64,000 bases of DNA from Octopus vulgaris (GCA_951406725.2 OX597814.1:104780001-104844000); one strand, 5' to 3'; numbered from the stretch's first letter, positions 55,933 through 62,676 are shown. Notes: generated from the sequence alone by a model not told the origin. Numbers and translations are program-made.

Positions 55933-56591
55933 TAATAATAATAATAATAATCAGAAGAAGAAGAAGAAGAATATCTTGCTGAAGAACACAACGCACTGCT
56001 GCGAATCGAACTCGCGAAATTCTGACCACCAAACCAATGTACCTTCACACACACGTCGTATTGTTATGGTCAATGGAGAATAAAAACCTCCAGAAATGTT
56101 GTGCTTATATGATTGGTATATATGGCTTATACGTACGTGTGCATGAAGTGTATGGCGGTATTTGTGCGGTTGATATAAAGAGCGCGCGCGCGCACACACA
56201 CACACATATATATATGGTGGGTGGAAAGGGGGCTGGTAGTAGAAACGGGATAGACATGACTTAAAATGAATATATACATTTTTTTTTTACTTTAAGAGTC
56301 AGAATTTACACTGTGCCTCAAATGTCCGACAAAAGCCAGCAACGAAACTCTCGGCCTTCAATCAGTTTGTAACTTCTAACGAATATAAACAAAACAAAAA
56401 AAAAAACGTAATTTGACACACACTCACACAGAGATATGTATATATACATCATTTAGGTATATATACATCATGTAGGTATGTGTGGTCACCCAGCGATGAA
56501 AATGACAGGCTGGCGATTTTCGAGGTTATACACCTTTCATTTGTTAGTGACTGCAAGTGGAGTTAAGTGTTTCAACATTATATTTAGACAG

Positions 56592-56630
56592 ATGAAGGGA
56601 GAGAAAACGGGAAACAGCTTGCGAACCAGG
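56592..56630 (+). CDS. Candidate upstream micro-exon (MKGEKTGNSLRTR, or 5'UTR) of the secreted-peptide gene
   Basis: Ends at consensus donor CAGG|GTAAGT (56630/56631); 39 nt from the ATG, in phase with the ATG at 56903. Confidence 0.35.
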
Positions 56631-56902
56631 GTAAGTGTCTTAAGTTATAAGTGTGAGGGTAACAGATGTGGATAATACTCGCGTGGCTTCATATGTTGGA
56701 AACATAATTGCACTGAAATACAATACAGAGGTAGATATGTGTGTGTGTATGTGTGTGTGTGTGTATAAGTATATACATAAATAAGTGTGTCGAATATAAA
56801 TACGTACATTAGTTAGACGGGATATGAACAGAATAGAAATAAGGTGGGTACCACTGGGACTCAAATTCGCATCTTCCGGAAGCTTGTCGTAAAACGAAAC
56901 AG

Positions 56903-57153
56903 ATGCCAAATTCAAATACGATACGGCTTCTTCTAAGTGTACTCACCATCTCTGTCCTAATTAATGAGTGTTCGGGAGGAAAAGAGAAAAAAATATATAG
57001 ACCCAGCTCGTGCTTCAATGAAGATAATAATCTCAACGATTTTAATCCACGCGACTGTGATATTTTTTTGTTGAACGGATTGTATTTGTATCTAGCGTGC
57101 CGGGAACATCGTAGCAGAATGGACGTAGATTTATTTCAAGAATATGTGACAAA
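56903..57153 (+). CDS. Candidate exon: signal peptide plus Cys-containing region of an unknown secreted precursor
   Basis: MPNSNTIRLLLSVLTISVLINECSG (n/h/c regions), then C-x14-C-x13-C; preceded by CAG; overlapping donors AA|GTGTGA (exon end 57153) or AGT|GTGAGC (exon end 57155). Confidence 0.55.
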
Positions 57154-59284
57154 GTGTGAGCTGATGATGCTTGCAATGTTTTATTTTTCTGAATCTAACC
57201 CATACAGTTTGTATTTAAACTTTATCGACCTATTGTATCTCTGAGTCATTCAGAAGATAAATAGCGTGACCCGAGTTTAAGATTTTGTAGGGAAAACAGT
57301 TCAAACGCATGGATAAGCTACTTCGGACATTGTTATTCGTCTCTATAAGGATTCTCTGTGTTGTTTTAATGAACTAATTTAGCAAACCTGATAGAACACA
57401 TTTATATTCCACGACTTCTGGTTTAATTGAGGTCAAACCATGATCTGACATTCTTTCAAGATTCATCAGTTAGTTCTTGGAATATTTCTTAATCAAATTT
57501 CTATAGAATCTTCTCACGCTTAAATGTCAGCCATCTTCTATTCGCCTACATCATTAAGGCTGTACCCTTTGGACATTACTTCCTTTTATGGATATTCATT
57601 CCATTTGATGTGAATTATTCTTGCCCGCATCTATCAACTTTTAAAGGCATTACCCAGTCTTGAAATAATCTCTGAGGTTTTATTCCGTTGCCTTTCTGAA
57701 ATAAACAAAGGCAAAGGCCCAAAACACGTCCCTTCAAATAATATTTTCTAGATTCTAAAATCACCTCTGAGTTCCGTTGGCAATGTAGGGTCATCGTATT
57801 AACCGAAAAACATACTGTACTGATTCAATTTGTACAGGGTTTGCGATATTATTTGCCAATAGGAACAATCTTCTCTCGGATGGATGAATGTCTCAAAGCC
57901 AGTCTTTGCTGGATCAAATTCGTTTAAAATCATTTTGTTGCTTTTTCCGTTTGTATATACATTTTAGACACGTACAAACACGCGTATATATATTCCTTCC
58001 TTCCTGAGCGTCCAATAATACTATATTTGTTCCACGTCCTCGCGTTGTTGCTTTTTCTCTTTGCGTTTTCATGTTTGGATTAACTATATATATATACCAG
58101 AAAGAATATGAATAAATTAATTCCACATAACAATACATGCCGGAATGCCTGTTTTTCTATTTCCATTGTGAACGAAAGTTTGTTATAACAAAGCATAAAA
58201 GCTGCCTCAGTTTCACAGCCCAGCTCATGATCTTTTCTTTTCTGTTTTGATTTCTCTTCTGTTCCGAAAATTCTTTGCTTCAATTTGAACCTTCCTAGAA
58301 GAAACCCTTTTTATTAGCACGCTCACAAGAAACCAATATGTCAGTCGCATTTGGTTTGCTTCTGCGTCCAGGAATAGTTAGTCATGCTACTTCAAAGCAT
58401 TTATTTAGCAATTTCGTAATTTCTTAAAGTACATTAATTAAACAAAACATTATTCAGTAGTTTCTGTTTTTTTTTAATTCCATCGTGTCACTTAAGCGTA
58501 AAGCAATGTCATTAGACATCAGATTAAAAATTATAATTAGAGAGAAAAGAATATTGTTGTCGACTTTAAAGATCGAAAGAATATTCAGGTGAATGTAACG
58601 TTTCTCAACTCTGTCTGTCTGTCTCTCTGTCTGTTTCTCTCTCTCTCTGTCTCTCTCTGTCTCTCTCTCTGTCTCTCTCTGTCTCTGTCTCTGTCTCTTT
58701 CTGTCTGTCTGTCTCTCTCTCTCTCTCTTTTTCTCTCTCTGACACATATTGCAATCATAGACGATGTAGAAAAATTAATTTCAAATGTTTTTGTAGATCA
58801 TATGTCACAACATTATTTGATTCTCGTTTACCATTTCCCAGTAAAATACGATAAATTCCTTTAATCATTTGAAACGAGAAGATGAGGAAGTCATTTAAAC
58901 GTATAAATGTTTTCGTGGAGGATTTGATGCTTTCAAGAAACTTATTAACACCCATAAGATTCGGATAATAGAGGAAACGGCAATTACTGATATTTGCTTC
59001 ATCGAAATTTCGTGCACAACGAAAGAATTTTGCAGATGCCCGACAAGGAGATATTTTGAACAATTTTAACCGATAAATCTTTCCCTCAGAGAAGGAAACT
59101 GAGGCGCCAAACACTGAGGTTGAGAAGAAACTCCATTAGAGAGTCGAGATAACATTGCTTGTGTTATCATAGTGATACTCCGGTTGCAATGAAAAGTTTC
59201 GCCTAACAGAAAGTCTTTGGTTACACAGAAATTATGAAATGACCCATTGAATACTTTCTGTCCTGTTGTCAACCGTTTCTGCGA

Positions 59285-60129
59285 CAAGACTAATTTCGAA
59301 AATGGAATGCTCCCACACTGCTATAGAGAAGTATCTTCACTCGATGGGAAAGGTACAGAAATATGGAGCATGGGTTCCGCATGCTTTAAGTGATAACAAC
59401 AAAAAACAACAAGCCACAATTTCCGCTGGTTTGCTTGCTCGTTACTGCTTAACTCATGGACACAAGCAACGATTTCTTTACCGAATCGTTACTGGCGACG
59501 AAAAATGGTGCCTGTACATCAATATGAAGCAGCGTAAGGAATGGCTTAGCCCCGGTAAACAAGCGACACCGCGCGTGAAACAAGATCTTCATCCGCGTAA
59601 AACGATGTTGTGCGTATGGTGGGACCGGAAAGGGATTATCCATTACGAATTGCTTCAACGGAACCAAGCGGCCAACGCGGAGCTCTATGTTCAACAGATG
59701 GAACGACTCAAAACGGCTATTCAAGAGAAAAGACCTAATCGTCAGCATAGAGGTCTGCTGCACGACAACGGCCGCTCTCATATCACCAATATGACTAAGG
59801 AAGTCATTCAAGCGCATGGCTGGGAAGTGCTGCCACACACGCCGTACTCTCCTGATTTGGCACCAACGGATTTCCACCTCTTTCGATCTCTTTCAAATGC
59901 TATGCGCGGAATTTCATTCAATACTGATGTAGAACTGAGAGCCTGGTTGGATTTTCGAATCGAAATCGGGTGATTTCTACCAACGAAGTATCGAAAATCT
60001 TGTTGAACGTTGGGAAGAAGTTGTAAACAACAAGGGTGAATACATTATTGATTAATTAGTTGTTATTTTTCATTAAACCTTTTAAAAAAGTTAAATAAAA
60101 AAACGGCGGGAACTTAGTTGCCAACCCAA
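59285..60129 (+). mobile_element. 5'-truncated mariner (mellifera-like TIR) with transposase relic
   Basis: WVPHAL, IVTGDEKW, LHDNGRSH, PYSPDLAPTDFHLFRSL; right TIR revcomp TTGGGTTGGCAACTAAGTTCCCGCCG followed by TA. Confidence 0.92.
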
Positions 60130-60160
60130 TACTTGTTGCATAATCTAAATGAAGTATATA

Positions 60161-61390: not shown

Positions 61391-61447
61391 GCTGGGAATC
61401 GAACCCGAGACGCCAGAGTGAAAGCCAGGAATCCTAACCACACTCTA
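61391..61447 (-). pseudogene. tRNA-Glu(TTC)-like relic
   Basis: Revcomp GGTTAGGATTCCTGGCTTTCACTCTGGCGTCTCGGGTTCGATTCCC resembles tRNA-Glu; acceptor stem missing and anticodon stem mismatched. Confidence 0.6.
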
Positions 61448-62308
61448 TACGTTAATAGACTTTCTGGCATCAATAATATTTTTCATAAGGATATATTTCT
61501 TTCAATAATTAAAAGTACTTATTTGTATAAAAAAAACTGAATTAACTTCCTTTGGTAACGAAGATTCGAGCTTCAAGAAATTCGATATTTACTTCAAGCA
61601 GCGTCTTCACCAAAACCGTTTCATCTGCTGCTGCCGCTGTGGTTATGTAAGTCATCTAATGAGATTACAGCCGTTGAAATGTAGGTTCCCGTCAGTTAAT
61701 AATTTATGAATGAAATTCACAACAGCATTGGCATCATTCTACAAAATGAGAACTTGGAAAAGGAGACGAGTGGATTGAGTTTTATATTCATATACACATA
61801 TAAACTGTACGCTTTAGTTTTCTATGCACATATACGCACATACGCATAAAGAAACGTGCATGTATGCACAAATATGTGTGTGTGTGTGTGTATCTAGTTT
61901 CTTATTGATCATCGCTCCTTATACATGTATGCGTGTGTATGTGTATGTGCGTGTGTGTATTTATGCCTGTGTATACGTGTATGTGTGTGTGTGTGTGTGT
62001 GTGTTATGCACAATATTATACATAAAAAGATGGTAAGAGTCAAAGTAGAAGAGATAGACGAAGAGAGATCAACGAAAATACTGAGGGAGAGCGAGGGAGA
62101 GAGAGGGGGAGAGAGAAGGAGAAAGAGATAAAGAGAAAGAGAGGGAGAGAGAAAGAGAGAGAGAAAGAAAGAAGGAGAGAAAGAGAAAGAGAAAGAGAGA
62201 GAGAGGAAGAAAGAGTGGGAGAGAGAAAGAGAAAGAGAGAGAGAGAAAGAGAAAGAGGAGAGAAAGAGAAAGAGAGAGTGGGAGAGAGAAAGAGAAAGAG
62301 AGGGAGAT

Positions 62309-62352
<44 letters not shown>

Positions 62353-62474
62353 CTATGCTTTTGTTTAAGCAAGTAAATATTATTACAAAATGGTTTGTAT
62401 TATATTTTTCGGCAAAAGTAATTGTTTTGCGTAAGATAACTGGATTGGAGCTATGACCTGTGTTAACGTTGCAG

Positions 62475-62592
62475 ATGTCGACGGGATGCGTCTGCACTAC
62501 ATCTTCACTCGCCAGCCAGGGAGCTGCACAGGGAGCCGAGCTGGCAATTTCTTCTGTCATTCGGAAAAAGGAAACAGAAGTTAATCGATTGA
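62475..62592 (+). CDS. Candidate terminal exon; phase-2 reading CRRDASALHLHSPARELHREPSWQFLLSFGKRKQKLID*
   Basis: Acceptor TTGCAG| at 62474; GC-rich unique island; dibasic RR and GKR amidation signal; the alternative phase-1 reading stops at 62584. Confidence 0.5.
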
Positions 62593-62664
62593 TAATCCGT
62601 GTTAAGTCTTCTACAGCCCTGAAATTGATATCAATGTTGTTGATTGATTTGCTGGTAGGACACG

Positions 62665-62676
62665 AATAAAAATAAA
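62665..62676 (+). promoter_or_regulatory. Tandem AATAAA polyadenylation signals
   Basis: AATAAAAATAAA about 75 nt after the candidate stop codon. Confidence 0.45.

Follow-up and report, generated by a model that had tools for sequence, protein, structure and literature searches.

A candidate prohormone gene with a putative C-terminal amidated peptide in repeat-rich DNA of Octopus vulgaris

Introduction

Does a small gene for a secreted, amidated peptide lie among the repeats of a 64,000-nucleotide (nt) stretch of Octopus vulgaris DNA (GCA_951406725.2 OX597814.1:104780001-104844000)? This whole stretch, hereafter called the window, is AT-rich and dense in microsatellites. The initial annotation, made from the sequence alone, had proposed a neuropeptide or hormone precursor gene near its end. 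We reanalyzed that candidate, which lies on the + strand with its exons within positions 56592-62592. Our preferred, though tentative, reading of the sequence is that of a small unannotated prohormone gene coding for a helical Cys pro-domain and an amidated peptide ending in F-L-L-S-F-amide. Such a gene is plausible but unproven, and a chance origin of its parts is almost as likely.

Results

Organization of the candidate gene. In support of a prohormone gene, all of its parts occur in order on one strand (Table 1). Direct inspection of the DNA located the upstream donor, the open reading frame (ORF), its Cys codons, the two GT sites, the acceptor, the stop codon, and the AATAAA pair where the initial annotation had placed them; transcription and both splice junctions are what we infer from these features. 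In the frame opening at 56903, Cys is encoded at 56969, within the signal peptide, and at 57011, 57056, and 57098. Its signal peptide was called by an in-house heuristic based on hydropathy and on the residues at -3 and -1, by which it has the features expected of a prohormone precursor, and in-frame ATGs upstream could lengthen its N-region. Two of the 21 ATG-initiated ORFs of the masked window passed this signal filter, namely, the 56903 ORF and a fragment of a long interspersed nuclear element (LINE). In the terminal exon, which follows the acceptor TTGCAG ending at 62474, an Arg-Arg (RR) pair at 62479 and a GKR sequence at 62563-62571 provide cleavage sites and a Gly amide donor; they share the frame of the signal peptide only if the modeled junctions are used. 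The TGA stop codon occupies 62590-62592.

Joining 57153 to 62475 gave, as had been reported, a 122-residue precursor, with a phase-2 intron. After the signal peptide come the four mature Cys, the RR pair, the 26-mer, GKR, and a tail of five residues. The second product proposed earlier, with five mature Cys, was likewise obtained by joining 57155 to 62475 and is 120 residues long. We identified another potential acceptor, and its use with the donor at 57156 (57155 joined to 62516) gives a phase-1 intron and a 109-residue protein that keeps the 10-mer and GKR while losing RR and the fourth Cys. The same amidated peptide would thus arise from two of the three main splice models. Without splicing, the exon-2 ORF encodes 113 residues.

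Table 1. Features of the candidate gene and transposon remnants in the window
Feature	Position	Strand	Details
Candidate upstream exon A	56592..56630	+	39 nt, 51% GC; AG before, consensus donor after; putative exon
Candidate intron 1	56631..56902	+	272 nt; acceptor 7/16 pyrimidines
Candidate coding exon 2	56903..57153 (or to 57155)	+	Signal peptide and hydrophilic Cys domain; predicted splice end
Predicted signal peptide	56903..56977	+	25 residues; best 10-residue hydropathy 2.65; small residues at -3/-1
Mature Cys domain	56978..57157	+	Two predicted helices (24-43, 50-59), single-sequence model
Candidate intron 2	57154..62474	+	5.3 kb; microsatellites and mariner relic; phase 2 in 122-residue model
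Mariner transposase fragment, in intron 2	59251..60131	+	Pfam Transposase_1, E 7e-26
Candidate terminal exon 3, coding part	62475..62592	+	51% GC; fourth Cys, RR, 26-mer, GKR, short basic tail, TGA
Predicted amidated 26-mer	62485..62562	+	Protonated mass (MH+) 3043.57; processing predicted from standard convertase/amidation rules
Alternative exon-3 start	62516..62592	+	AG at 62514-62515, 14/20 pyrimidines
C-terminal 10-mer after single Arg (EPSWQFLLSFamide)	62533-62562	+	MH+ 1252.64
Tandem AATAAA	62665..62676 (at 62665 and 62671)	+	72 nt past stop, in A-rich tract
Second mariner	35413-36303	-	297-codon open frame; helix-turn-helix and DDE parts both present
Tc5/pogo-type transposase and LINE reverse-transcriptase fragments	8945-9767; 24819-25473; 39840-41313	-; +; -	

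Prohormone convertases, carboxypeptidases, and the amidating enzyme act in turn on peptide precursors, and the mechanism that we propose rests on this established biology. The short upstream exon, the signal-peptide exon, and the terminal exon would together give a precursor directed into the secretory pathway. The signal peptide would be lost after about residue 25, leaving a pro-domain of roughly 60 residues, presumably helical and closed by disulfides. A prohormone convertase would cut at RR and KR, a carboxypeptidase would trim the ends, and the amidating enzyme would convert Gly to the amide, releasing the 26-mer and/or, after the single Arg, the 10-mer ending in W-Q-F-L-L-S-F-amide. The peptide would then probably act on a class A (rhodopsin-type) G protein-coupled receptor as a neuropeptide or neurohormone. 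These processing steps, the tissue, and the receptor are predictions.

The candidate upstream exon and the start codon. Exon A, not described as coding before, starts with ATG; across intron 1, this codon is in frame with 56903 and would lengthen the precursor by 13 residues. Its frame is open for 58 codons (56457-56630) and contains further ATGs at 56478, 56496, and 56502. The true start is uncertain because this upstream frame is open and has several in-frame ATGs; the best hydrophobic stretch scores 1.55 from the far-upstream start versus 2.65 from 56903. A start at 56496 would give a weakly hydrophobic leader with six Cys downstream of it. A further strong donor at 56844 would leave a 59-nt intron ahead of the 56903 ATG. 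At all three candidate acceptors (56591, 56902, and 62474), CAG directly abuts ATG.

The donor of exon A (AGG/GTAAGT at 56631) lies at the 99.9th percentile among GT sites of the window, as computed with a donor weight matrix, and it is the best in 56000-63000. This raises the possibility that exons A and 3 belong to a longer gene or noncoding RNA whose remaining exons are located upstream or beyond the window, read, for instance, in phase 1, and that the 56903 ORF is an intronic chance occurrence. Exon A is symmetric (39 nt), has a good acceptor, and is open in two frames, and the abutting CAG and ATG at all three acceptors would suit phase-1 Asp junctions. On the other hand, among the 140 ORFs of at least 62 codons found in the window outside simple repeats, only transposon proteins reached the Pfam cut-off, and no homologue was found for the phase-1 frame of exon 3. 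We consider such a transcript improbable.

Splice signals and codon composition. The splice signals, codon composition, structure model, homologue searches, sequence variation, and genome-wide chance rate each hold points that weigh against a functional prohormone gene. By the same matrix, exon 2 has two weak donors, of which that of the four-Cys model (57154, 88.9th percentile among window GT sites) is the weaker; the phase-1 donor at 57156 (94.7th percentile) is the better consensus match, as the initial annotation had recognized. It had also pointed out the lack of a pyrimidine tract at 56902. All three acceptors are in fact pyrimidine-poor, with 9, 7, and 9 pyrimidines per 16 bases at 56591, 56902, and 62474, respectively.

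Codon signals are mixed. The GC content per codon position in exon 2 is 0.42/0.32/0.38, and exon 2 and the exon-3 peptide frame both follow the coding-like order GC1 > GC3 > GC2, which the rival phase-1 frame does not. Conversely, codons of the purine-any-pyrimidine (RNY) type are rarest in the exon-3 peptide frame (0.13 versus 0.29 and 0.30).

These signals bear on an alternative in which exon 2 is a genuine secreted-protein exon whose product carries no amidated peptide, by way of the 57155-62475 form, the unspliced ORF, or splicing to an unrecognized exon. A Cys-rich protein of this kind might function in saliva, in venom, or as a pheromone. The superior donor at 57156, the higher RNY and GC3 values of the alternative exon-3 frame, and the 113-residue length reached by the unspliced ORF all fit this explanation, and cephalopod salivary glands are described as expressing 27 superfamilies of short, functionally uncharacterized secreted proteins, many of which lack homologues outside the group (10.64898/2026.02.02.703354). 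However, the 120-residue form has an odd number of Cys and GC2 exceeds GC1 in its exon-3 frame, for which no homologue was found, and the RR...F-GKR arrangement would be left as a coincidence. The window also contains no paralogue, whereas the SF1 venom precursors are tandemly arranged. On balance, we regard a non-amidated secreted protein as unlikely.

An additional 66-codon frame with a cluster of Cys (CCCRC) directly ahead of a GTAAGT donor at 61647 was observed inside intron 2 (61509-61709, + strand). It has no Pfam match and could be an extra exon or a chance occurrence.

Structure prediction and searches for relatives. AlphaFold modeled the 60-residue mature stretch as two helices with a predicted local distance difference test (pLDDT) score of 67.7 and a predicted template modeling (pTM) score of 0.52. 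Our single control, an antisense ORF from the same DNA, yielded a pLDDT of 65.7 and a pTM of 0.26. The local confidence of the model is thus no better than that of the control, and the difference in pTM is at most a hint of a fold. Comparisons with known folds were uninformative: the best Z score was 4.7, to generic helical hairpins, with none of 48,161 chains at Z of at least 5, and Foldseek gave no match at E 0.001. The best ESM Atlas scores, 0.79 and 0.76, were likewise uninformative, recognition being at about 1790.

HMMER searches with exon 2 against 1.84 billion representatives revealed no relative. Two matches were rejected as artifacts, since they were tandem-repeat ORFs on single ENA contigs with 26-33% identity. 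A protein word search returned three candidates for exon 2 and two for the peptide frame, none of which scored, and none for the phase-1 frame. These negatives are limited by the fact that the presence of octopod proteomes in the libraries searched was unchecked. None of the four exon translations matched Pfam, the best E value among PDB sequences was 0.43, and Rfam gave no matches over 55000-64000. In metagenomes, exon 2 had 106 pattern matches, of which none was confirmed, and the peptide motif occurred at three loci, none of which encodes a matching peptide.

No FLLSF neuropeptide or LSFamide ending was found in the published literature, the scope of which excluded subscription papers, such as that on the cuttlefish neuropeptidome. 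A motif search of the accessible supplements to PMC6425005, PMC8557429, PMC8398477, and PMC5996578 revealed no such precursor either. The molluscan insulin B-chain, CHH/ITP, eclosion hormone, natriuretic peptide, and attractin families were considered and dropped for wrong Cys spacing or for want of an A-chain.

Precursors of short peptides diverge too fast for these searches, so that the lineage-specific origin proposed by the initial annotation is a conjecture. Moreover, absence from protein sets is only modest evidence, because the precursor of the oyster peptide RTLFamide, proven by mass spectrometry, has only a noncoding XR_ accession.

Copy number, variation, and RNA. The initial annotation had allowed for a match of either exon to a transposon, and the candidate survived this check. 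The coding part of exon 3 is represented by a single contig in each of two DNA runs, X2 and X3, at a depth similar to that of its flanks (62355-63600, 80% likeness), which argues against a repeat family. Neither exon matches another part of the window at the DNA or protein level, or Pfam; for exon 2, the result applies to the window only. Exon 3 had also been described as a unique GC-rich island. Its uniqueness is borne out by these observations, whereas its composition is not rare, as the window contains 58 islands of at least 51% GC. Exon 2 was contained in 3 of the 24 runs listed (word shares of 1.00, 0.93, and 0.93), which carry three organism labels and come from two studies; none is recorded as RNA.

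X2 does not differ from the window over 62420-62666, and X3 differs once, at the intronic position 62460. Exon 3 shows 0 differences in 192 nt, compared with 7 in 729 nt (X2) and 6 in 816 nt (X3) of flanking sequence, which is not significant (p 0.19 and 0.28, respectively). Two of the flank differences are common to a run labeled as the same organism as the run best matching exon 2. This indicates that the genomes are nearly conspecific, and thus too close for a test of selection or of reading frame.

Contigs of the RNA-guessed run X4 all lie past 62660 (62660-63182), at low depth and with none over exon 3, and provide no evidence on expression. These contigs past the AATAAA pair probably reflect DNA carry-over, or possibly another transcript. 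A second RNA-guessed run, X7, has no contigs on 62355-63600 and gives no evidence either way.

Chance expectation. We asked how often such an architecture would arise at random. As the null, we used Markov sequence of order 4, with the masked window as training set, and scanned it with a crude detector, which defined a terminal-exon-like stretch as a dibasic site, G-K/R-R, a stop codon, and AATAAA. The resulting rates flatter the candidate because the detector was built after the finding had been seen. In 132.5 Mb of single-strand null sequence, the detector returned 1,462 signal-peptide-like ORFs (11 per Mb), of which 401 were accompanied by an acceptor plus an upstream donor. Terminal-exon-like stretches numbered 546 (about 4 per Mb of single strand). 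The joint architecture occurred 18 times, including 6 with a hydrophobic amidated residue and 0 with a Leu-X-Phe (LxF) ending. In a second run, over 140 Mb, terminal exons numbered 597, of which 36 ended in F-amide and 6 in LxF-amide. The loose architecture is thus expected about once per 70 windows, and the version with LxF-GKR about once per 7,500, as a product of rates. Extrapolated to the whole genome, which we take to be 2.5-3 Gb, these rates predict that about 180 models with a hydrophobic amide, and about 5 with LxF, would arise by chance. The combination of features is therefore beyond chance for a window but not across a multigigabase genome.

In the unmasked window, the terminal-exon filter returned two matches. 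Only the candidate carries a hydrophobic amide site; the other match lies in a tandem repeat. The filter missed exon 3 in the masked window, presumably because its A-rich tail was masked.

The main competing explanation is that there is no protein-coding gene: a signal-peptide-like ORF and an RR...GKR stretch, both fortuitous, would lie 5 kb apart in unique noncoding DNA, possibly regulatory islands, and would have been joined only by the pattern search. We judge this to be a serious possibility, though a somewhat less probable one than a prohormone gene. The null rates of the two parts, the passage of a LINE fragment through the signal filter, the abundance of GC islands, the weak donors, and the lack of a homologue are all consistent with it, as is the location of the AATAAA pair in a tract of 69% A that unrelated contigs also match. 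Arguing the other way, the full combination is rare per window in both its loose and its LxF versions, and several features were left unpriced by the null, i.e., CAG abutting ATG, the near-perfect upstream donor, Cys abutting RR, and the step in GC content at the acceptor. The secreted-peptide precursor proposed by the initial annotation thus stands as the most likely single reading, but with no transcript, homologue, or selection signal to its name and with chance copies expected genome-wide. Should chance be the correct explanation, the locus would be a caution that such architectures arise by the hundred in multigigabase genomes.

Transposons and other repeats. The Pfam-passing ORFs of the window are two mariners, one Tc5-type DNA-binding domain, and one reverse transcriptase, the last a 396-codon frame at 40126-41313 above the Pfam cut-off. 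The candidate has no recognizable host-gene neighbor across the 64 kb. The mariner in intron 2 has a terminal-repeat-like right end at about 60131, and its left end was not found; this element is a passenger and not part of the gene product. Tandem units of 184 bp from one repeat family, which resembles a short interspersed nuclear element (SINE), occur at 46340-46856 and 55465-55826.

Comparison with known peptide systems

If the gene is real, it would add a new neuropeptide or hormone gene in cephalopods, whose neuropeptidome has been surveyed in one species only (10.64898/2026.02.18.706622), and it would demonstrate that raw DNA lying between microsatellites can be read for genes of this kind. 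Its proposed mode of operation is that of a prohormone carrying one copy of an amidated peptide.

The octopus SF1 venom precursors, which mimic tachykinin, octotensin, and myosuppressin, are short, secreted, octopodiform-specific proteins with dibasic sites, encoded mostly by two exons (10.64898/2026.02.02.703354). None of their mimic motifs (RRPYIL of octotensin, or tachykinin or myosuppressin endings) is present in the three forward frames of exon 3. SF1 genes form tandem arrays between FABP and NR-GRF genes, whereas the 64-kb window contains no paralogue and no FABP or nuclear-receptor domain.

The oyster provides two further parallels (PMC8398477). RTLFamide is a single 24-residue, Trp-containing peptide with an F-GKR end that protein annotation had missed and mass spectrometry revealed; by eye, it has only W...F-GKR in common with the candidate and lacks a Cys domain. 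In the FYFY precursor, as in the candidate, a Cys-rich domain precedes a C-terminal peptide, but FYFY contains ten Cys.

QRFP (26RFa) and the candidate are both single peptides of 25-26 residues with a Phe-amide end, and position 4 of the last 25 residues of the candidate is Leu, as in QRFP (PMC4062910). They differ in that QRFP ends in RF-amide and has Ala8, Lys18, and Gly20, whereas the candidate ends in SF-amide and has Ser8, Ser18, and Gln20 (PMC4062910). The QRFP-type receptors of lophotrochozoans were without ligands in these accounts (PMC8557429, PMC4062910). The L-type SALMFamides of echinoderms, which act on kisspeptin-type receptors, share the Leu-X-Phe-amide ending (PMC9400282). Their precursors, however, contain seven short copies, a phase-0 intron, and an Asn-Ser core, in contrast with a single copy and a phase-1 or phase-2 intron in the candidate (PMC9400282).

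The Leu-X-Phe-amide ending, which the initial annotation had not remarked on, also calls for comparison with kisspeptins. The KP1 peptides have this ending together with one or two core Asn residues, and a phase-1 intron separates the signal-peptide and peptide exons of their genes (PMC9400282). Chordate kisspeptins have Phe or Trp three or four residues ahead of the end, and in amphioxus one of the precursors gives rise to an SF-amide (PMC4062910). The candidate likewise reads L-S-F-G-KR, with an aromatic residue, Phe, four places ahead of the amidated Phe as in KP1 (PMC4062910), and shares SF-amide with the amphioxus precursor; its signal peptide and peptide also lie on two coding exons. Conversely, the 26-mer contains no core Asn and has a Gln five residues ahead of the terminal Phe. 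The intron is in phase 2 in the 57153-62475 model and in phase 1, as in kisspeptin genes, only in the 57155-62516 model. ArKPP1 has two peptide copies and the candidate one. The N-terminal Cys domain of the candidate also sets it apart from kisspeptin precursors, in which we know of no such domain. Because the core Asn residues are absent, membership of the kisspeptin family is not established; we consider it very doubtful from the sequence, and the candidate should not be classed among the kisspeptins.

In the receptor tree as described, kisspeptin-type receptors of oyster and limpet are present and those of cephalopods are not. Of 20 supplements, 12 contained no cephalopod name, and 10.64898/2026.02.18.706622 is ambiguous on this point. 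As of February 2026, the ligands of the mollusc and annelid kisspeptin-type receptors were undiscovered, and finding them was called critical (PMC13020265). It is conceivable, at long odds, that the candidate precursor is this missing lophotrochozoan ligand, with W-Q-F-L-L-S-F-amide acting on a clade-2 receptor common to molluscs, annelids, and starfish (ArKPR1). It might then have been overlooked because it is small, fast-evolving, and unannotated, with a Cys pro-domain unlike deuterostome precursors. A real gene here would make the stated question of those ligands cheap to test. The ending of starfish ArKP1.2 is TLLPF-amide, against FLLSF-amide in the candidate, and ArKP1.2 activates a receptor in the clade that holds the annelid and mollusc kisspeptin-type receptors (PMC13020265).

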